From the NCBI GenBank assembly GCA_964479955.1, contig CAYZNK010000003.1:2329-66328 (forward strand): a stretch of 64,000 bases of DNA, read 5' to 3'. The stretch comes from an uncultured Candidatus Saccharibacteria bacterium. GTDB taxonomy: Bacteria; Patescibacteriota; Minisyncoccia; Minisyncoccales; Staskawiczbacteraceae. Under the pieces are notes generated by a model. That model was given only the letters and a program-made list of their open reading frames with translations, had not been told where the DNA came from and did no database searches. The translations under genes were made by a program, and so were the position numbers. Shown here piece by piece: positions 9,330 to 61,528 of this stretch. Each line of letters starts with the position of its first letter. Positions within the stretch are counted from its first letter, which is position 1.

Positions 9330-11780
9330 ATGGAAACTGCACCATATTCAATTTATATAAACCACAGACCATTTAGAATCGTTTTTTTCTTGAGTCCAAC
9401 TACAGATATTGCTTGGATAGATGCAGTTATTAAGTTCAATCGAGAAAAATGGGGAGGAAGATTTAATCCAATCATTCTTACCGATGGAACGACAATCGCG
9501 GATGATTGGTGGAAATTTCTTCGAGGATACGATCCGGATATTATTTGTTCAACAGTTCCTCTTTCTGATGAATTACGAAAAAAGATACATGTTTTTCTTT
9601 CTCCACTTCGTGTTGAAGAATTAGTTCAAGATCAGGTGTATATAAGAGTTGATGATTATCCGCTCACGATATTACCAACTGGTAGAAATGTATCTAAAAT
9701 TGGCATTCCTAATTTCGACGAGAAGAATAACCTAATTGTCTTTGAAGTTGATGCAAGCACACCGGAGATTATAAAAAGTTTCTTAGATCGAAACTTTGGC
9801 TTGCTCGAACAGGGGCAGATGATGACATATCATCTCAAAAAAGCATTAGAGACGTGCCAAATCAAGAAATACAAGGTAACCGATGAAGAAACACTCAACG
9901 AAGCATTGCTAGATTTGGGTGAATGGCGTACTCGGGCAGTATTCCCATCTCAAATTTGCGCCCTCCCAAACTCAATTAAAGAAGCGCACCATGCCTACAA
10001 TAATGAGGGTTTCGAGCTTGTTATAGGAGACAGCGCGGATGAAATAATTCGTTCTTGGAATCGCACGCTAGAAATGGGATCATGGTTACGCACTTCAATA
10101 ACTAATTTATGGCTTCCAACCGTACTTGCCAACAGCGCATCACTCAAACCTGGACTTGGTAAATTCCTTAATCGTTATACTGGGAGTGCCGCAAATGACC
10201 ACAATCGTCGAGTTAACTTTACCTCATTTACTCTTAGCGAGACTGATCTACAAACAATCGCGAATTCTTTTCAAACAACAATTTGGCACCCGAGACGTAT
10301 AACAAAATTCACAGCACATCCAATGCCAGACTATGAATCTCAAGGATCATATTTTTTCCTTAGACAGGGATTAGATTTTCATAGAGCCCATTCGAACGAA
10401 GAATATCTTGTTCTTGATGAGCCAGATATAGAGCAGGGATTTATGGGCGGAGAGAATTGGTTCACTGATTTATATATTCAATATCGGCCAGAACGTTTCA
10501 AAAACATCATAGGAAAAGACTATTGGTGGCAACTCCCTAAGCGAAACGGTCTATTGCGAGATTTACAGTTTTTTAACAAGCCAGCACGAATTAACGAGCA
10601 CGGCATGTTTAGCGTAATGATGAGGCGCAGAACAAGCATCATTGTCGGTCACGATGACGGAACTTTAGTAGTCAAAATACCTGAAGACAACTCTGTATTT
10701 CATGCATTAATTTGTGGCGAGGGTTTTGATTGTATTGAACGCGGAGATAGAGAAAGGTTTTTATCTCGTCCTTTTTATCATCTGCAACGTTCAGATAAAG
10801 GTATGTATTTATCTGGCGTTCTTGGACTTTTTCCAGATCTTCTAAATGCACATCGACTTTTTGAGGAAAGATACTGGCGTAATCTCTTTGAGCGAATGGC
10901 AAATCATAATCCAGAAAAGGATGACCGAACACAACAAGAACTTTTAAACAAACTCAGTAAAAAGATAGATTCGGGGTTGGATTTTAAGAATGATCGTGCT
11001 AAAGAATGGCTAGCTCATAATGTTTTTAACATTGCAAAAAAGTATAGCAAGGAAGAAATTGATCTCGACTACGAAACTATGATCGACCTTGCCAAAGAAG
11101 AAACTAACCAATATAACAAGAAACCTTCGGGACAAACTATTGAGTTTAATGAAGACTATTTCAGGAATGAGCTGTCAGATCTTGTCGAAATGAATATCCT
11201 ACAACTAGGAATTAAGCCACGATGTCCTAAATGCGGATATCGAATTTGGTATAGAATTGATGATGCAAAACAAGAAATAACTTGTCGTGGTTGCGGATAT
11301 AAATTTTCCGTTCCTGCTGAATCAAAATGGTTTTATCGACTGAATAATCTTATACGAGCAGCTGTTTCATTGCACGGAACGGTACCGCTTCTTATTACGC
11401 TCGGGCAGTTAATGGGAGATTCTCGATCTTCTGCGATGTTTATGCCAAGCCTGGAGCTCTTAAAAAAAGAAGAAGGCGGACAAGGAAAAATGACAATTTA
11501 TGGTGAACTTGATCTGGTTTGTATTAAGGACGGTAAGTTTATTATTGGAGAGATAAAACAATCAACTGGATTATTTGGGCCTGATGATTTTAAACGAATG
11601 AAAGATGTTGCTAGGATGGTCCGCCCTGATGAAATCATTTTTTCATCTTTAGATAAAAAACCGAATGCTTTTGTAACGGAGAATATTGAAAAACTCAAAA
11701 CCGAGTTAGCTGATTTAGAGATAAACGTTGAATGGTACCCGATTCATTATTGGGTATTTGAACCCCATCCTGTCAGATAA
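9330..11780 (+). CDS. 816-aa protein of unknown function with C-terminal zinc ribbon and PD-(D/E)xK-like motif (orf816)
   Basis: Long uninterrupted ORF starting 4 nt after the peptidase gene. CPKC-x16-CRGC at nt 11222-11300; GELDLVCIKDGKFIIGEIKQ at nt 11503-11565. No NTPase motifs seen. Confidence 0.7.
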   Translation: METAPYSIYINHRPFRIVFFLSPTTDIAWIDAVIKFNREKWGGRFNPIILTDGTTIADDWWKFLRGYDPDIICSTVPLSDELRKKIHVFLSPLRVEELVQDQVYIRVDDYPLTILPTGRNVSKIGIPNFDEKNNLIVFEVDASTPEIIKSFLDRNFGLLEQGQMMTYHLKKALETCQIKKYKVTDEETLNEALLDLGEWRTRAVFPSQICALPNSIKEAHHAYNNEGFELVIGDSADEIIRSWNRTLEMGSWLRTSITNLWLPTVLANSASLKPGLGKFLNRYTGSAANDHNRRVNFTSFTLSETDLQTIANSFQTTIWHPRRITKFTAHPMPDYESQGSYFFLRQGLDFHRAHSNEEYLVLDEPDIEQGFMGGENWFTDLYIQYRPERFKNIIGKDYWWQLPKRNGLLRDLQFFNKPARINEHGMFSVMMRRRTSIIVGHDDGTLVVKIPEDNSVFHALICGEGFDCIERGDRERFLSRPFYHLQRSDKGMYLSGVLGLFPDLLNAHRLFEERYWRNLFERMANHNPEKDDRTQQELLNKLSKKIDSGLDFKNDRAKEWLAHNVFNIAKKYSKEEIDLDYETMIDLAKEETNQYNKKPSGQTIEFNEDYFRNELSDLVEMNILQLGIKPRCPKCGYRIWYRIDDAKQEITCRGCGYKFSVPAESKWFYRLNNLIRAAVSLHGTVPLLITLGQLMGDSRSSAMFMPSLELLKKEEGGQGKMTIYGELDLVCIKDGKFIIGEIKQSTGLFGPDDFKRMKDVARMVRPDEIIFSSLDKKPNAFVTENIEKLKTELADLEINVEWYPIHYWVFEPHPVR

Positions 11781-11916: not shown

Positions 11917-12129
11917 AACAATTTAATATTACTGGCCGGAAGGCCAGCGACCTAACCCCTTTGGATTTTCCAAAGGATATGGTCGGGAAACCCAACGAAG
12001 ATACTGAACCCCGCGTTCAGCGACTCTTCGTTGGGTCATATCGGGAAACTGGTATGGGACCGCAAGGTCTAGCTGGCGCGGGGTTCTGTGTATCCAAAAC
12101 TCTATCGCCAGCCACAAAGGTTGGTTTTT
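11917..12129 (+). ncRNA. Candidate structured non-coding RNA, class unknown
   Basis: Locally G+C-rich intergenic stretch with nested hairpins, two of them capped by GNRA loops on the + strand only (GGAA at 11938-11941, GCAA at 12062-12065). Also a 10-bp stem 11991-12000/12026-12035 and a terminal T-run at 12125-12129. Confidence 0.4.
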
Positions 12130-12156: not shown

Positions 12157-12924
12157 ATGAACAGTCTATTTTTAGTTCTCTTATTACTCTCTTTCGTCGG
12201 TATCATTGTCGGATTAATAAAACCGTCAGTGGTAAAAATGAAATCACGTAAACAATCACTGTTAGTATTCGGTGGCTCAACAGTTTTATTCTTTTTATTA
12301 TTCGGAGTAACAGCCGACCCAGCTCCAGTCACAACTCCAACTCCAGTAGCTCAAGTCGAGCAAGCTGAAAATCAAAAGGTGCCAGAAATTGAAAAGCCAA
12401 TAACGCAGGAAGTAGAACAGCCAAAGCCAGAACCAGTTGCACAATCAAAAACTCTTGAGGAAAAAGTAAGCGATGCCATAAACACCTCTCTCGGTTCAAA
12501 AACAAATACCGACAAACAAAGAGTTGTTGGCGTTGAAATTACCAAGTATGACGCCAGTATGATTTCTGCGTATAAATACAAAAGTGGAGACTCGGTCGTT
12601 TATCTATTGATAAAAATAAATGCCGATGAAAATTTAACAACCAATCTCCAAAAGAACACGATGCACGACGAGGCTGTTAAAATAGCTAAGGCAGTTTTCC
12701 CGGTAGACCAAACAATTGGAGATATAATTATCTACTCACAACTTCCGCTTAAGGATCAATATGGCAATACCGAGGATGGCACAGCTATTACATACTCAAT
12801 GTCGCGATCTTTATTCGATAAAATAAACTGGAGTAATTTTAGTTATCGTGATCTACCGACACTCCTAAAATCAGAGCATAAAATTGACGACAGGAATAAT
12901 TACTCGGAAAGTATCAAGTTTTAA
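12157..12924 (+). CDS. Membrane-anchored hypothetical protein
   Basis: Two N-terminal hydrophobic segments, a Pro/Glu/Gln-rich linker, then a ~150-aa globular C-terminal domain. No family recognised. Confidence 0.55.
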   Translation: MNSLFLVLLLLSFVGIIVGLIKPSVVKMKSRKQSLLVFGGSTVLFFLLFGVTADPAPVTTPTPVAQVEQAENQKVPEIEKPITQEVEQPKPEPVAQSKTLEEKVSDAINTSLGSKTNTDKQRVVGVEITKYDASMISAYKYKSGDSVVYLLIKINADENLTTNLQKNTMHDEAVKIAKAVFPVDQTIGDIIIYSQLPLKDQYGNTEDGTAITYSMSRSLFDKINWSNFSYRDLPTLLKSEHKIDDRNNYSESIKF

Positions 12925-20956: not shown

Positions 20957-21028
20957 GGCACGGTAGCCAAGTGGTAAGGCAAGGGTCTGCAAAACCCTTA
21001 TACGTGGGTTCAATTCCCACCCGTGCCT
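20957..21028 (+). tRNA. tRNA-Cys(GCA)
   Basis: Hand-folded cloverleaf: acceptor ggcacgg/ccgtgcc, anticodon loop ctGCAaa, T-arm gtggg-ttcaatt-cccac. Confidence 0.85.
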
Positions 21029-21117
21029 CAAAAATAAGTGCTAATTTATTTATAGATAATATAGTATACGAATAGTAATTTATTGTTCTTTAGTCTACCA
21101 TATGTTAAAATAAGTTA

Positions 21118-21624
21118 ATGAAGCCAAGAAAATGGACAGAAGAACAATTAAGAGAATCTGCTAAAAAATCAACCAGCGTTAGACAGGTTTTATATTATTT
21201 GGGGCTAAAAGAAGCTGGAGGAAATTACGCTCAGATTAGAAAATATTTGGATTTTTATAAAATTAGTACATCACACTTTACGGGCCCAGGTTGGAGTAAG
21301 GGATTAAAAGGAATCGGAAAACCCCGGATACCGCTAGAAAAAATTTTAGTTAAAAATAGTACATTCCAAAGCTTTAAACTAAAAAATAGATTATTTTCAG
21401 CAGGAATAAAGCAGCCTAAATGCGAAGAATGCGGTTGGGCTGAAAAAAGTTTAAATGGTTATTTGCCACTGGAGTTAGACCATATAAATGGAGATCATTT
21501 TGATAATCGTTTGGAAAATTTAAGAATTCTATGTCCCAATTGTCACAGTTTGAAACCCAATCATAGGGGCAGAAACATTGGTAAATATGCCCGGATGGCG
21601 GAATGGTATACGCGCAACACTTAA
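21118..21624 (+). CDS. HNH homing endonuclease
   Basis: ELDHINGDHFDNRLENLRILCPNCH HNH motif with a CEECG zinc pair. The last 36 nt overlap tRNA-Leu(TAA). Confidence 0.8.
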   Translation: MKPRKWTEEQLRESAKKSTSVRQVLYYLGLKEAGGNYAQIRKYLDFYKISTSHFTGPGWSKGLKGIGKPRIPLEKILVKNSTFQSFKLKNRLFSAGIKQPKCEECGWAEKSLNGYLPLELDHINGDHFDNRLENLRILCPNCHSLKPNHRGRNIGKYARMAEWYTRNT

Positions 21625-21672
21625 AATGTTGTGAGGCTTGTCTTCATGTGGGTTCGACTCCCACTCCGGGCA
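21589..21672 (+). tRNA. tRNA-Leu(TAA), type II with long variable arm
   Basis: Acceptor gcccgga/tccgggc, anticodon stem caaca/tgttg, loop ctTAAaa, T-arm tggg-ttcgact-ccca. Confidence 0.85.
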
Positions 21673-21675
21673 CAA

Positions 21676-21714
21676 CAAAAAAACACCCTTAGTATATACT
21701 AAGGGTGTTTTTTT
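21676..21714. terminator. Bidirectional terminator hairpin
   Basis: 13-bp perfect palindrome acacccttagtat/atactaagggtgt flanked by an A-run and a T-run, between convergent tRNA-Leu and the 3D-domain gene. Confidence 0.75.
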
Positions 21715-21722
21715 GTTACGGA

Positions 21723-22223: not shown

Positions 22224-22346
22224 ATATTTTTCTTTTTAATAAAAAAACTCCCTCTCAGGAGTATGTATTAATCTTAGCATTTTTAAAGCCCTTTGTCAAT
22301 AGTTAGAACATAGAAAATATCCCTTGTCAAGATAGCCGGATTTTAA

Positions 22347-22372
22347 CAAAAAAAGCCCTTTTGTAAGGCTTT
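22347..22372 (-). terminator. Terminator candidate after the tRNA cluster
   Basis: On the minus strand: agcctt-acaa-aagggct hairpin (one bulge) followed by a T-run, just 3' of tRNA-Gly. Confidence 0.45.
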
Positions 22373-22379
22373 TTATATG

Positions 22380-22450
22380 AGCGGGACACGAGAATTGAAC
22401 TCGCGCCTCGATCTTGGCAAGATCGTGTACTACCACTATACTAGTCCCGC
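22380..22450 (-). tRNA. tRNA-Gly(GCC)
   Basis: Acceptor gcgggac/gtcccgc, anticodon stem cgatc/gatcg, loop ttGCCaa, T-loop ttcaatt. Confidence 0.85.
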
Positions 22451-22525
22451 CTACGCTTGCGAGCTTCGGCGGGCAAAGCCCGCTTTGCATTTTTGTGCTT
22501 TGCACACCGAAGCTTTAGCGAAAGT

Positions 22526-22599
22526 GTGCCGCGGGGCAGATTTGCACTGCCGACCCCAGCTTTTTCAGAGCTGTGCTCTGCTACCTGAGCTACCGCGGC
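22526..22599 (-). tRNA. tRNA-Phe(GAA) with unusual T-loop TGCAAAT
   Basis: Acceptor gccgcgg/ccgcggc, D-arm tagctcaggtagcagagc, loop ctGAAaa, T-arm ggcag-tgcaaat-ctgcc. Confidence 0.8.
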
Positions 22600-22617
22600 T
22601 TGTTATACTTACTGTGT

Positions 22618-22676
22618 ATTTTTCCATAATACATAAAAGCATTATAGAAAAATATGTGGACGATGTAGGGCTCGAA
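22618..22676. repeat. 59-bp perfect direct repeat, copy A (tRNA-Val 3' 20 nt + 39 nt of 3' flank)
   Basis: Identical to 22791-22849: atttttccataatacataaaagcattatagaaaaatatgtggacgatgtagggctcgaa. Confidence 0.95.
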
Positions 22677-22790
22677 AAGTTGCCCGAAGGCATTGCCGCC
22701 TCGCCCCTCGTCGCTTTACTCCTCGGGGTCTGCTGACCTGCGGGCTCGGCGCAATTCGGGAGGTAGGTTCTCGCTACATACATCCATAAT

Positions 22791-22849
22791 ATTTTTCCAT
22801 AATACATAAAAGCATTATAGAAAAATATGTGGACGATGTAGGGCTCGAA
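22791..22849. repeat. 59-bp perfect direct repeat, copy B (overlaps the real tRNA-Val 3' end)
   Basis: Identical to 22618-22676. Positions 22830-22849 are the 3' 20 nt of tRNA-Val(TAC). Confidence 0.95.
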
Positions 22850-22902
22850 CCTACGACCTTCTCGGTGTAAACGAGACGCTCTGCCAGCTGAGCTAATCGT
22901 CC
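22830..22902 (-). tRNA. tRNA-Val(TAC)
   Basis: Acceptor ggacgat/atcgtcc, D-arm tagctcagctggcagagc, loop ttTACac, T-arm gtagg-ttcgagc-cctac. Confidence 0.85.
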
Positions 22903-22908
22903 ATGTAG

Positions 22909-22990
22909 TGCGGACGGTGGGAGTCGAACCCACATGCCTTTCGGCGCCACCACCTCAAGATGGTGCGGATACCAATTTCGCCACGTCCGC
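22909..22990 (-). tRNA. tRNA-Leu(GAG), type II
   Basis: Acceptor gcggacg/cgtccgc, anticodon stem ccatc/ggtgg (one G-U), loop ttGAGgt, long variable arm, T-arm gtggg-ttcgact-cccac. Confidence 0.8.
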
Positions 22991-23641
22991 TCGGCTATTA
23001 TTACTGTCAATTCTTAGTATGTCTTGTATTTTTTTAAGCTTTCTGTATAAACAAGGTACGTCTTTTTTGTAATACATTTTTGAGACCAAAATTTTGGATT
23101 CTTTTTTAGCATATCTCAATTGGAAAAAATTATTTTTTTTCGTTTTGCTTATAAATCCATTTACCCTCGCAAATAATTTAATTTTTTTTCTCAACCAATC
23201 AATATGTTTTTTGCTTGCGGATGTAAATGTTATATAAAACATAAAACTGCTACGCCATCTTTTATCCCAATAACTATAACAGCATCCGTCTCCATCAAAA
23301 TGGCCCCTTAAAAAATCAAAAAAATATTTGTCTGGAATATTTATTTTACCTATGGTTTTACTTTTGTGAGGTCCTATGCCGATTATTAAGAGCCACTTAT
23401 AAAACGCAATATCTCCAAATTGTACGTGTGGACATTTTTTTGCCGAATATCCGCTTGTTTTAAATCCGATTTTATTTTTTATTCCTAAGCACTCTCGAAA
23501 TGTTTTGATAAGCTGAATATCTTGAGATGTAAAGTCTATATGTCGTCCATCATTATATAAACATCCGTCTGTTGCTAATAGCCCGATAGCATACGCTAAT
23601 TTTGTGCTCCATTTTATTAATATTTTAGATTGAGGTTTCAT
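22955..23641 (-). CDS. LAGLIDADG homing endonuclease (two-motif, monomeric type)
   Basis: LAYAIGLLATDGC and FLRGHFDGDGC motifs; 228 aa. The last 36 nt overlap tRNA-Leu(GAG). Confidence 0.8.
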   Translation of the reverse strand: MKPQSKILIKWSTKLAYAIGLLATDGCLYNDGRHIDFTSQDIQLIKTFRECLGIKNKIGFKTSGYSAKKCPHVQFGDIAFYKWLLIIGIGPHKSKTIGKINIPDKYFFDFLRGHFDGDGCCYSYWDKRWRSSFMFYITFTSASKKHIDWLRKKIKLFARVNGFISKTKKNNFFQLRYAKKESKILVSKMYYKKDVPCLYRKLKKIQDILRIDSNNSRADVAKLVSAPS

Positions 23642-23685
23642 TTTTTATTATACCTCAAACATAAAGCGTATACCAATGTTTAATT

Positions 23686-24144
23686 TTAATTGTCTGTATT
23701 TTCTTTGGGAGTTTGTTCTGGTGCGGATTGTTCCTCTGTTGTTGTTTCTTGGTCTTCGTTAGGTGTTTCTTCAACGGGCTCTTCTGTTACAGCCTCTTGT
23801 AATCCTTTTTTCTTTAATTTGGCCTTTTTACCTTTTGCTGTCCTTAAATAGTAAAGCTTGGCTCTTCTTACCTTTCCTTTTTGTACAACCTCTATTTTTT
23901 CTATTGACGGAGAATGTATTGGAAAAATTCTTTCAATTCCTATTCCATCGGTTATTTTTCTCACAGTAATTGTTGCGGGAATTCCCCCTCCATGTTTTTT
24001 GGCGATAATAATCCCTTCAAAAATTTGTATTCTCTCTTTATCTCCCTCTTTTATTTTTTGGTACACTTTAACAGTATAGCCAGGCCTTAAATCGGGCATA
24101 TTTTTTAATTGTAGCGCATCAAATTGGTTTAATATTTTGTTCAT
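23686..24144 (-). CDS. rplS: 50S ribosomal protein L19 with acidic C-terminal tail
   Basis: [51 protein letters not shown] is the bL19 signature. Confidence 0.9.
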
Positions 24145-24218
24145 TTATTTTGCGAATTTCTAATTTCTAATTTTAAATTTCTATTAAATTTATAATTTTA
24201 AAAAATTAGTTAATTGAA

Positions 24219-24917
24219 TTATTTTAATTTGTCTAAAACTTTTTGCAGTTCCTCGGGCAATTCTGAATTAAATTCTTTGTATTGGCCTGAGGGTAATTGG
24301 ATTTTTAAATAAGATGCGTGCAGAAATTGTCTTGATAGTCCTTCCAGTATAATTTGATCTTTAAATCCGTACAATTTATCCCCTGCTACAGGATGGCGCA
24401 AATAAGATAAATGGCACCTTATCTGGTGTCGTCTTCCTGTTTTTATTTTTATTTCCAACAGAGTAAAATCATTAAATCTTTTAATTGTTGTAAATTCAGT
24501 GATAGCTTCCCTTTTCCCTTTTTCTTCGGTATCTGACAAAGGGTATACTTTTTGTTTTCTTTTGTCTGTTTTTGCTCTTCCTATAAGTGTTTTTATTTCC
24601 CCAAAACCCTCTTTTATTATTCCTGTCGCTAAGGCTGTATATTTTTTATCTACCCTTCTATTTATAAACTGTTTTTGCAGAAAAATCAAGGATTCTGTGT
24701 TTTTGGCAATCAATAAAATTCCCGAAGTATCTTTGTCTAATCTGTGGACAATTCCGTATCTTGGGGACTCTCCTGCACTTTTTAATTCGGGATATTCTTC
24801 AATCAGCGCGTCAATAATTGTATTGTCTTTTGTCTGCCCTTCCGGAAACACAACCATGCCCGATGGCTTATTAATAACCAATAAATCTTTGTCTTCGTAG
24901 ATTATCTTAAAATTCAT
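24219..24917 (-). CDS. RluA-family pseudouridine synthase
   Basis: HRLDKDTSGILLIAKN catalytic motif and RHQIR motif. No S4 domain. Confidence 0.85.
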   Translation of the reverse strand: MNFKIIYEDKDLLVINKPSGMVVFPEGQTKDNTIIDALIEEYPELKSAGESPRYGIVHRLDKDTSGILLIAKNTESLIFLQKQFINRRVDKKYTALATGIIKEGFGEIKTLIGRAKTDKRKQKVYPLSDTEEKGKREAITEFTTIKRFNDFTLLEIKIKTGRRHQIRCHLSYLRHPVAGDKLYGFKDQIILEGLSRQFLHASYLKIQLPSGQYKEFNSELPEELQKVLDKLK

Positions 24918-60367: not shown

Positions 60368-61354
60368 TTATTTTAGATACCTTTTCAAGTGTTTGGGGTT
60401 ATGAGAACCTATTATTTTAAAATATAATTTCATATCTTTTTGACTATCAATTCTTATATCTCGATAGTTAAAAAGTCGTGACCTTATTCCTAATGAATTT
60501 AGAATGTTATATACTGATTTGCGCATCGGATACGAATAGCACGCAAAACATAGTTTTTTATAAGTATAAAATTTATTATTGATCTGATATCGATGATCAA
60601 AAATACACCCATCTGTATCGATTAATCCGCGCACACATGAAATTGAGTAGGACGTATTATTTTTTATCCAACTAGGGATATCAACCTGCAATTTAATTTT
60701 GTTTCCCTTCTTTAAGCCTAATTTGACTAAATAATCAACCAAATTGACACTTGAAATAGATATCCTTGAAGCATTAACCCCTTTTATGTTCAATATACTT
60801 GGCCTTTTATCAAAAAGTTTATGAATTAAATTATATACGAATTTTATATATTCTTTGTCATCTATATTATTCAAGGTTATCTGAATTTGTCTATTTTTTG
60901 AAGTAAATCCTCCGTCTCCAAGCATTATTCCGATGAATTCCGCTAATTTTTTGCTTTTTTTCGCTTTTTTTATTGGTTTTCTTTTAAATAAAGGGTTGTC
61001 CAAAAATTTACCCGTTTTATTCCACCATTTGTTCCATGCCATTTTTCTATTTTGTCCGCCAACACAGCCATATTTTTTGATGCAAGCAGCCGACCCCATG
61101 ATTCCTCCAAGTTTTGCGCCCTTAATAGTATACCAATAATTATTTTTTTCTATAAAATTTTTAGGGACTGATACGTTAGTTTTTTCGCATAATTTTAACA
61201 TTGCATCTTTGTTTATCAAAAATTTTTCTCGTCTCCAGTCTCTTATGGTTCTTTCGGAAAGACCACAAATATTTGCCGCTTTTGCAACGGTAACTTTGGT
61301 GAGGATTTTCTCTATAAATTTTTGTTGGCCGCCCTTTTTAAATAGAATTCTCAT
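60368..61354 (-). CDS. LAGLIDADG homing endonuclease with N-terminal HTH domain
   Basis: FIGIMLGDGG and VRGLIDTDGC motifs. N-terminal HTH AANICGLSERTIRDWRREK. The longer track ORF (to 61453) runs into tRNA-Ser and is rejected. Confidence 0.8.
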   Translation of the reverse strand: MRILFKKGGQQKFIEKILTKVTVAKAANICGLSERTIRDWRREKFLINKDAMLKLCEKTNVSVPKNFIEKNNYWYTIKGAKLGGIMGSAACIKKYGCVGGQNRKMAWNKWWNKTGKFLDNPLFKRKPIKKAKKSKKLAEFIGIMLGDGGFTSKNRQIQITLNNIDDKEYIKFVYNLIHKLFDKRPSILNIKGVNASRISISSVNLVDYLVKLGLKKGNKIKLQVDIPSWIKNNTSYSISCVRGLIDTDGCIFDHRYQINNKFYTYKKLCFACYSYPMRKSVYNILNSLGIRSRLFNYRDIRIDSQKDMKLYFKIIGSHNPKHLKRYLK

Positions 61355-61440
61355 AACGATTAACCCATACCTCCATAATATCATATTTAAAATTAAATAA
61401 AAAGTTGATTTATAAAAAAAATATGATAAAATAAACAACT

Positions 61441-61528
61441 GGAGGAGTCGCATAGCGGCAATTGCAATAGTTTTGAAAACTATGACCCCTTACGGGGTTC
61501 GTGGGTTCGAGTCCCACCTCCTCCGCCA
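61441..61528 (+). tRNA. tRNA-Ser(TGA), type II, CCA encoded
   Basis: Acceptor ggaggag/ctcctcc, anticodon stem atagt/actat, loop ttTGAaa, variable-arm hairpin, and a genomic CCA at 61526-61528. Confidence 0.85.

Follow-up and report, generated by a model that had tools for sequence, protein, structure and literature searches.

The question raised by the locus described here is what kind of event leaves the tail of a tRNA gene duplicated around 113 nucleotides that hold no gene. The locus lies in a tRNA operon of an uncultured Candidatus Saccharibacteria bacterium (assembly GCA_964479955.1, contig CAYZNK010000003.1, positions 2,329 to 66,328), and the whole stretch of 64,000 nucleotides that was analysed is called the window below. 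When part of a tRNA is found again beside a tRNA gene, the copy is usually read as the scar of a phage or genomic island. In the present case the "island" amounts to ~170 bp of hairpins; such inserts are present in several Patescibacteria and have either of two conserved cores, one of them with strongly covarying helices. Gene-less, tRNA-tail-flanked inserts built from inverted and direct repeats constitute a recurrent class in Patescibacteria, and the window block is very probably a mini-insertion of this class. While insertions flanked by tRNA tails are of a known kind, the new feature is that these are gene-less, hairpin-built, and recurrent; as a class of inserts beside tRNA genes in these bacteria they are previously undescribed. 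As to their origin, a non-autonomous mini-element that recombines at the tRNA T-loop is tentatively preferred.

The duplicated tail of tRNA-Val and its insert

The two repeat copies, 22617-22676 and 22790-22849, are identical at 60 of 60 positions and differ in their flanking bases. Between them lies an insert of 113 nt (22677-22789) with a G+C content of 60.2%, versus 35.9% for the window; the G+C content reaches 66% in the core of the insert (22677-22762) and is 15% in the trailer hairpin of the repeat. A first-pass annotation of the locus had recognized a perfect repeat around a G+C-rich insert but gave their lengths as 59 and 114 bp, and it had described one copy correctly as the tRNA-Val end plus 39 nt of flank, with a tail of 20 nt where 21 nt are found. 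In the following, X1 denotes the tail within the intact tRNA-Val, X2 the orphan tail, and rcX an inverted, degenerate tail copy. Read on the minus strand, the order is tRNA-Leu, tRNA-Val, a 39-nt A+T-rich hairpin, the 113 nt, the 21-nt tRNA-Val tail, the same hairpin, 17 nt, tRNA-Phe, a 75-nt G+C-rich hairpin, and tRNA-Gly, so that the element itself runs X1, A+T-rich hairpin, rcX, 86-nt G+C-rich core, X2, hairpin again. The 20-nt tRNA tail occurs at just two sites in the 64 kb (0 expected in shuffled sequence), and no other duplicated tRNA tails were found in the window. The tRNAs listed below were called with ARAGORN and Rfam covariance models, and "L" numbers denote comparison loci from other Patescibacteria genomes.

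22955-23641, minus strand: LAGLIDADG endonuclease gene between L19 and tRNA-Leu(gag), its stop codon inside the tRNA
22997..23025, minus strand: promoter-like site AAGACA-17-AATAAT, a consensus-scan match only, 7 nt upstream of tRNA-Leu(gag)
22908..22990, minus strand: tRNA-Leu(gag), first gene of the operon (ARAGORN, Rfam)
22829..22902 (ARAGORN) or 22830-22902 (Rfam), minus strand: intact tRNA-Val(tac), 69.4 bits; its last 21 nt, 22829-22849, are X1
22790..22849, minus strand: direct repeat copy B, 100% identical to copy A and made up of tRNA-Val positions 54-73, the base that follows, and the 39-nt trailer
22790..22828, minus strand: A+T-rich trailer hairpin 1, 15-17 bp stem, 15% G+C; arms 22789-22803 and 22814-22828 are 93% complementary, and the minimum free energy fold has a 17-bp stem
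22763..22786, minus strand: 5′ arm rcX, UGGAUGUAUGUAGCGAGAACCUAC, degenerate inverted copy of the tRNA-Val T-arm and acceptor 3′ strand, abutting hairpin 1
22677..22762, minus strand: G+C-rich core (type W, see below), 86 nt, with the blocks CCCGAAUUGCG, CGAGCCCG, GGCGAGGC, and CAAUGCCUUCGGGCAACU and a UUCG hairpin at 22682-22691
22617..22676, minus strand: direct repeat copy A, consisting of the orphan tail X2 (22656-22676) and, at 22617-22655, trailer hairpin 2; no tRNA called, and the earlier description as an orphan stands
22526..22599, minus strand: tRNA-Phe(gaa), downstream gene of the operon (ARAGORN, Rfam), 97% identical to that of L081
22451..22525, minus strand: G+C-rich 75-nt hairpin spacer between tRNA-Phe and tRNA-Gly, z = -3.29; context outside the repeat unit
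22379..22450, minus strand: tRNA-Gly(gcc), last gene of the operon (ARAGORN, Rfam), followed by a stem-loop and T run at ~22345-22372

Comparison with relatives characterizes the block as an addition. In L081, which shares ~88% DNA identity with the window and 90% identity in the L19 protein, tRNA-Val and tRNA-Phe are separated by 13 nt; the same spacer measures 22 nt in L094, 10 nt in L097, and 4-70 nt in most of the 35 Patescibacteria loci surveyed. Because these three close relatives have only 10-22 nt at this position, the block 22617-22828 is, on comparison of the sequences, a recent, lineage-specific insertion at the 3′ end of tRNA-Val, and the empty sites bear out the earlier proposal that an insertion there duplicated the tail. 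The empty-site junction expected for the window itself joins tRNA-Val directly to CACAGTAAG. The window tRNA-Val is ~86% identical to the alleles of L081, L094, and L097, versus 97% for tRNA-Phe and 100% for tRNA-Gly, and it carries compensated changes in the acceptor and T stems; this unusual allele suggests that tRNA-Val and the insert may have arrived together as one block. Since a promoter-like site precedes tRNA-Leu and a stem-loop with a T run follows tRNA-Gly, while terminator prediction finds none inside the operon, the block probably sits within one transcription unit and would be co-transcribed with the tRNAs. A TATAAT promoter in the trailer hairpin was not called by the consensus scan. 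Two open reading frames (ORFs) across the region (22565-22933 on the minus and 22377-22736 on the plus strand) overlap tRNAs and are not credible as coding.

The duplicated segment begins at T54 in the T-loop of tRNA-Val, the point from which integrations of the T-loop type start. The motif gtaggttctcgctacatacatcc at 22763-22785 aligns as an inverted T-arm and acceptor of tRNA-Val, and the 24-nt arm matches the reverse complement of the tRNA at 20 positions. This resemblance, noted loosely before, is real and extends further than first noted: it forms part of a 92-nt quasi-palindrome (22763-22854) centred on the hairpin loop, in which 34 of 45 alignment columns match and 41 nt (T-stem, acceptor, and the first 16 trailer nucleotides) align with the reverse complement of the 43 nt ending at 22763. 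A counterpart in L029 matches in 35 of 50 columns. Over the T-loop, the arms fork and contain mismatches. X1 and rcX lie one 39-nt hairpin apart and rcX and X2 86 nt apart, so that pairing is possible within one strand. With the arms paired, a 134-nt RNA fold reaches -50.5 kcal/mol (z = -2.5), moderately better than shuffled sequences, whereas the 113 nt by themselves show no such advantage over shuffles (z = -0.2). The predicted rcX–X2 helix comprises 12 bp with one bulge and reaches to the discriminator base; six further pairs then close the core. In the fold of the complete 173-nt unit, a hairpin adjoins this helix (z = -4.8 relative to mononucleotide shuffles). X2 retains TTCGAGCCCTAC and the acceptor strand; the 5′ strand of the T-stem is absent beside it, and neither Rfam nor ARAGORN calls a tRNA there. 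The GCC-UUCG-GGC tetraloop hairpin reported previously on the tRNA strand is present at 22682-22691.

The core has no similarity to the local tRNA-Val sequence; its resemblance to an inverted tRNA-Lys anticodon arm, equalled by 9 of 500 shuffles, is a weakly supported lead. Rfam searches, both at the gathering threshold and at E ≤ 10, returned only tRNAs and weak chance matches, the families searched including the HDV-like, theta, twister, hammerhead, hatchet, and pistol ribozymes. Three ribozyme cores (HDV-like, hammerhead, and twister) were also threaded on the sequence by eye, and none fits. Nothing similar to the element was found in phages, plasmids, or IMG/VR contigs; two IMG/VR matches to an 18-mer were dismissed as chance, as the other blocks are absent from them. 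The 113 nt are non-coding, no integrase or other element gene lies between or beside the repeats, and only housekeeping and endonuclease genes occur within ~5 kb. No tyrosine recombinase or other recombinase was detected among the 20 ORFs scanned, about one third of all ORFs in the window.

Related inserts at other tRNA genes

Duplicated tRNA tails downstream of tRNAs were found at eight loci. L086 and L088 carry an insert after tRNA-Lys(ctt), upstream of rpsO, in which ~50 core nucleotides are nearly identical to those of the window element, and the elements of the window, L086, and L088 define the type W core. The blocks GCGAGAACC, CCGAAUUGCG, CGAGCCCG, and GAGGCAAUGCCUUCGGGCAACU are common to all three; the window itself has GCGAGAACC, CCGAATTGCG, CGAGCCCG, and GAGGCAATGCCTTCGGGCAACT between the antisense arm and a tail starting at T54 (alignment A4 and nhmmer) and scores E = 1.8e-17 against an nhmmer profile that was built from the window, L086, and L088 and so includes the window itself. 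In each case the arms and hairpins match the local tRNA and are otherwise unalignable across loci, and all 3 copies are co-oriented with their tRNAs. A divergent relative after tRNA-Val(gac) in L030 is marginal (E = 0.06). The distribution of type W is patchy, since close relatives of L088 (S15 proteins 85-90% identical) lack the element at the same locus while the distant L086 carries it with an S15 that, judged by eye, is only ~58% identical to that of L088. Within the 64-kb window the type W-like unit is present as a single copy. A pattern scan of metagenomes gave seven matches, of which five, in contigs of 56-70% G+C, were rejected as chance.

A second core, type P, is found in L020, L025, L029, and L052. 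In its elements, a 5′ arm and GAAGG are followed by a GACG-loop hairpin, CGAGCC, another hairpin, and GGCGAGUCC, with the tail last. A three-helix covariance model built in this analysis (R1) identifies 19 copies in the four genomes, all on the tRNA strand, located after Leu(taa), Ile(tat), Leu(gag), and Val(tac) and often two in series; in L052, two full units and one without a core stand in tandem. In an alignment of 12 sequences, 92.6% of the cells are paired and 21 of 27 pairs change on both sides, a level reached by none of 500 shuffles, with slid controls at 27-47%. Loops and junctions are invariant while the stems covary. Helices P2 and P3 contain 302 Watson-Crick, 4 G·U, and 5 A·C pairs among 317, and tandem G·A/A·G pairs alternate with Watson-Crick pairs at three helix positions, the purine-purine combination always being on the tRNA-sense strand. 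The 5′ arm complements X1 better than X2 in 9 of 14 elements, equally well in 4, and less well in 1, and X2 often retains only CGAGUCC. Because the same ~50-nt core occurs at tRNA-Lys and a second core type 19 times in four genomes, the insert is a defined, recurrent, gene-less unit. Of the original suggestion of a scar or miniature remnant of an element targeting tRNA-Val, the start at T54 agrees with the targeting; the idea of a random scar of a large element does not hold, as the core recurs at tRNA-Lys with the same boundaries. Homology between type P and the window element was considered and rejected: R1 gives no match at 22600-22850, and only CGAGAA, a 19-nt spacing, and CGAGCC are common to both, which was treated as a likeness of architecture.

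Further rearranged tRNA sequences were observed in the comparison loci. In L102 (~1075-1420), tRNA-Lys(ctt) is followed by a 330-nt A+T-rich insert with two G+C-rich hairpins at its end; a 17-nt direct repeat of the tRNA tail, starting in the T-loop, flanks the insert. L100 (~1100-1400, upstream of rpsO) contains an intact tRNA-Lys(ctt) within the D-loop of a second, split tRNA-Lys, the nested tRNA being flanked by complementary G+C-rich stems of 14-17 nt; in L105, the same stem is closed as a hairpin inside a truncated tRNA-Lys fragment. In L012 (7460-7640), an intact tRNA-Val(tac) stands between a 5′ and a 3′ fragment, the flanks being complementary. L029 (6820-6890) has three successive tail starts, CGAGUCCC; GACAUAGUUUUAAGAAGG comes after each of the first two and the tRNA-Val acceptor strand after the third, which suggests repeated events or slippage at one junction. 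Partial duplications of tRNA 5′ ends also occur, because a pseudo-copy of the 5′ end of tRNA-Phe was found 40-60 nt upstream of tRNA-Phe in L025, L029, and L020 (GGCCGAGGAAA vs GCCGAGGUAGCC), downstream of a promoter-like TTGAAA/TTGATA-N17-TAAAAT.

Origin of the insert: a proposed T-loop recombining unit and its rivals

The tentatively preferred explanation is a gene-less hairpin mini-element, non-autonomous, which would recombine at the tRNA T-loop by way of a folded hairpin that mimics its target. It is favoured because of the start at T54, the forked and mismatched arms, and the tandem in L052. According to this model, the unit would move, or be regenerated, through T-loop recombination at position 53/54, with the recombinase supplied from elsewhere. 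The tail and its inverted copy would fold into a hairpin imitating a double-stranded target, as CTX attP(+) and integron attC do; that recombination actually passes through such a folded hairpin is a somewhat doubtful step of the model. Integration of a folded, single-stranded att hairpin would leave precisely the topology X1-spacer-rcX-core-X2, the orphan downstream tail X2 representing a displaced or duplicated end comparable to attR. X1 and rcX would then belong together, and X2 would be the displaced end undergoing decay, a pairing that is suggested because the 5′ arm tracks X1 over X2, G·U pairs are few, and the trailer hairpins are perfect. Since the unit supplies a tail copy of its own, tRNA-Val would remain intact. 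Once inserted, the unit would be co-transcribed, with the 12-bp rcX–X2 helix ending at the discriminator base, and RNase P and RNase Z could excise it from the transcript and leave the flanking tRNAs unharmed, which would make the insertion tolerable. If mobile, such a unit would be among the smallest site-specific elements, and its folded target copy could replace an element-encoded att site and integrase.

Several known systems share parts of this architecture. Integration into tRNA genes, as reviewed by Williams in 2002, reportedly leaves the 3′ part of the gene as a direct repeat, the block of identity extending from the T-loop past the end of the tRNA. Phages, integrative and conjugative elements, and tycheposon-like islands that target tRNA genes resemble the window in having a direct repeat of the tRNA 3′ end with one intact and one partial copy, identity from the T-loop past the tRNA end, and empty sites in relatives (PMC9897764). 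In contrast to the 113 nt found here, which have no gene and an inverted copy, these elements span 3-100 kb, encode an integrase, and have no inverted att copy. In phage CTX, two att sites in inverse orientation, with ~90 bp between them, fold in single-stranded DNA to give attP(+); the phage relies on a host recombinase, has its integration completed by replication, and propagates by means of tandem copies (PMC4246890). Inverted target-like copies, a short spacer, an imperfect hairpin mimicking a duplex, tandem arrays, and a recombinase acting in trans link CTX attP(+) and attC to the present elements. However, the target here is the T-loop and acceptor of a tRNA rather than dif or attI, the units are 150-175 nt long and contain no genes, and any role of Xer or IntI is hypothetical, as is folding as single-stranded DNA. 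The sequences CGAGAAC and GTTCGAG also deviate from the attC boxes R″ (RYYYAAC) and R′ (GTTRRRY), and they are located at the inner rather than the outer end of the stem. Yeast mitochondrial GC clusters, Rickettsia palindromic elements, and the repetitive extragenic palindromic and bacterial interspersed mosaic elements (REP/BIME) are likewise short, gene-less, G+C-rich hairpins with a patchy occurrence in A+T-rich DNA, but they have fixed ends, short or no target duplications, and no tie to tRNA tails, whereas the arms described here copy the adjacent tRNA. With arms that differ from tRNA to tRNA, a duplication of 17-60 nt, and a single copy in 64 kb, the unit is also not a miniature inverted-repeat transposable element.

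A number of observations weigh against a T-loop recombining element. No recombinase for the unit was found among the 20 ORFs scanned, and its 173 bp provide no means of replication or transfer of their own. In each element the arms correspond to the tRNA next to it, which a fixed attP could explain only on the additional assumption that gene conversion or palindrome correction re-templates the arms. The presence of type P at the same tRNAs in four genomes fits vertical inheritance under selection equally well, and the conserved tandem G·A/A·G pairs of the sense strand together with the invariant GACG loops suggest that a folded strand is selected, which could be RNA. Type W has only three clear members, of which those in L086 (z = -0.3) and L088 (z = -0.6) show no folding beyond that of shuffles, and its link to type P is one of architecture and not of alignment. 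Finally, both 60-nt copies are identical, so that the resident tail is indistinguishable from the other.

A small structured RNA, a possible reading already raised by the first-pass annotation, is the rival that survives best, although it is unlikely. The inserts would then represent a family of RNA genes in tRNA operons, in which tail and complement form a closing helix resembling an acceptor/T-stem and RNase P and RNase Z release a stable hairpin RNA of ~130 nt that has a function of its own and perhaps binds protein through the tandem G·A pairs. This explanation accounts for the position of the element inside the tRNA transcription unit and on the same strand, for the closing helix that ends at the discriminator base, for the co-orientation of all 19 type P and 3 type W copies with their tRNAs, and for core blocks that are near-invariant across distant lineages within otherwise unalignable spacers, and the covariation, invariant loops, and sense-strand tandem G·A pairs of type P point in the same direction. 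A precedent exists in the t-elements and acceptor-like stem-loops of plant mitochondria, partial tRNA mimics within longer transcripts that direct cleavage by RNase P and RNase Z (PMC1920247). In partial likeness to these signals, the window element has at its end a T-loop, T-stem, and acceptor strand that are predicted to pair as a 12-bp helix with a discriminator base; t-elements, however, keep a T-arm hairpin and stand beside mRNAs, while here the T-loop pairs with an antisense arm, the body is a long G+C-rich hairpin, and processing is predicted. An RNA gene is opposed by helices without an excess of G·U over A·C, by a 5′ arm that follows the tRNA's own tail rather than X2 while X2 decays in many copies, by the absence of the insert from the three closest relatives and its patchy distribution, by the indifferent folding of the L086 and L088 elements, and by the lack of an Rfam match. 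If the inserts are RNAs, they would add new structured RNA families to tRNA operons in a phylum with very few characterized non-coding RNAs, and either reading, mobile or RNA, explains the variable spacers in otherwise conserved tRNA operons.

Somewhat less probable still is a local tandem inversion duplication by template switching, in which the polymerase would snap back at the trailer hairpin, copy the tail backwards, and then continue forward, with neither mobility nor function being involved. Tandem inversion duplications in Salmonella, as described by Kugelberg et al. in 2010, are said to arise by snap-back at quasi-palindromes. The tails of the window element have the corresponding direct-inverted-direct order, the first junction coincides with a palindrome whose centre is the hairpin loop, and the match of the arms to the local tRNA in every case would follow automatically. 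Near-perfect Watson-Crick helices are expected from templated palindrome correction, and partial, nested, and inverted tRNA pieces are common at the tRNA genes of these bacteria. In tandem inversion duplications, however, all copies and junctions are local, whereas the second junction here holds a conserved foreign core that is common to several lineages: its 86 nt do not derive from the local tRNA-Val, ~50 near-invariant nucleotides are common to it and to the tRNA-Lys elements elsewhere, and its derivation from an inverted tRNA-Lys anticodon arm is weakly supported. Likewise, type P loops and junctions are kept while stems vary, the opposite of neutral palindrome drift.

Another possibility, regarded as rather improbable, is that the 173-nt unit is an integrated rod-shaped, gene-less mini-circle and forms, with the nested tRNAs of L100 and L012, a family of minimal tRNA-gene parasites in Patescibacteria. 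The circle would fold as a dumbbell, with 41 bp of tail and trailer paired to the inverted copy and the core at the other end. It could pass through single-stranded DNA, a host tyrosine recombinase acting on a hairpin that resembles a T-arm, which would correspond to a CTX-like strategy reduced to the att site. Alternatively, it could pass through an RNA cut by RNase Z at two successive tRNA tails; such cleavage would leave a 5′-phosphate and a 3′-hydroxyl adjacent to each other on a built-in splint, a geometry suited to ligation into a circle.

A classical attL/attR scar, that is, a phage or integrative element of kilobase size that entered tRNA-Val by means of an integrase and was later deleted almost completely, is more improbable yet. 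One complete and one partial tRNA copy constitute the standard integration footprint (PMC9897764), the repeat starts in the T-loop, and the L102 insert with its tRNA-Lys tail repeat has a similar appearance, but only 113 nt lie between the repeats, no integrase or phage gene is nearby, and phages, plasmids, and IMG/VR offer nothing similar. Moreover, independent deletions in three lineages would not have ended with the same core and boundaries, and a scar offers no explanation for the inverted tail copy.

A by-product of the neighbouring LAGLIDADG endonuclease, through repair of its cuts or co-conversion, is very hard to credit: although endonuclease ORFs (HNH, 21118-21624; LAGLIDADG, 22955-23641 and 60368-61453) crowd the tRNA spacers of the window and a distinct tRNA-Leu allele accompanies one of them, the insert is missing from L094 and L097, both of which have that endonuclease and that allele, and at seven insert loci (L020, L025, L029, L052, L030, L086, and L088) no endonuclease gene is adjacent. 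This largely refutes the relationship to the LAGLIDADG gene that had initially been suggested as possible.

Equally hard to credit is an assembly artefact, either a false duplication or a chimera of two strains, although the sequence is a metagenome-assembled genome (MAG) and mis-joins can create perfect repeats. A Logan contig (k=31, run SRR8925719, possibly the source data of the MAG itself) equals window 24431..22820 and ends exactly 30 nt (k-1) inside copy B, so both left contexts of the repeat are present in the reads, and the same architecture occurs in independent assemblies of other organisms. Stopping at this point is the behaviour expected of a true repeat boundary in a de Bruijn graph; it excludes a collapse peculiar to a single assembler, although it is no replacement for long reads. 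For the same reason, namely that perfect repeats break de Bruijn graphs, such inserts matter for tRNA annotation and for the assembly of MAGs.

Endonuclease genes and other features of the window

The LAGLIDADG gene beside the operon occupies the same place in L094 (3001-3687) and L097 (3001-3651), where it is 85% and 81% identical, and its family has >3000 entries in the protein database. One tRNA-Leu allele is common to the window, L094, and L097; it is ~75% identical (own count of invariant columns, alignment A3) to that of L081, a locus without the endonuclease. The association of allele and endonuclease looks like co-conversion during homing. No homology was found between the LAGLIDADG protein and a 221-amino-acid ORF of L081. 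An HNH endonuclease ORF (21118-21624, plus strand) is located between tRNA-Cys (20957-21029) and tRNA-Leu(taa) (21589-21673), its 3′ end entering the latter; in L081 these two tRNAs are 4 nt apart with no ORF between them. A second LAGLIDADG-domain ORF of 361 amino acids (60368-61453, minus strand) separates tRNA-Ser(gct) from tRNA-Ser(tga); these two genes are convergent and have 18 identical nt at their 3′ ends.

Other genes of the window encode IF-2, RbfA, L19, an RluA-type pseudouridine synthase, FtsH, Tgt, ATP synthase, and TsaD. L19, for which an exact-protein lookup gave no record, is closest to that of Patescibacteria MAGs (Portnoy-, Staskawicz-, and Nealsonbacteria; ~70% identity), and the order L19, Leu(gag), Val(tac), Phe, Gly is kept across this group. 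A phage origin of the window was rejected on account of the housekeeping genes (IF-2, RbfA, L19, FtsH, and ATP synthase), the affiliation of L19 with Patescibacteria, and the absence of a phage match by megablast.

The spacer between tRNA-Phe and tRNA-Gly also varies among relatives, being 15 nt in L094, a different 60-nt hairpin in L097, and the 221-amino-acid ORF in L081. Its start in the window, CACUUUCGCU...GCUUCGGUGUGCAAAGCAC, resembles trailers that follow tRNAs in L025, L012, L027, L100, and L102, and spacers of this type may form another small family. Immediately after tRNA-Leu(taa), a perfect palindrome of 22+22 nt occupies 21674-21717, and a similar sequence, 82% complementary, follows tRNA-Gly at 22344-22365; both are probably bidirectional terminators. 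Elsewhere in the window, a full-length match to LOOT RNA (RF03000) is present at 11949-12070 (plus strand) between the ORFs 9330-11780 and 12157-12924, with 84 bits against a gathering threshold of 46.

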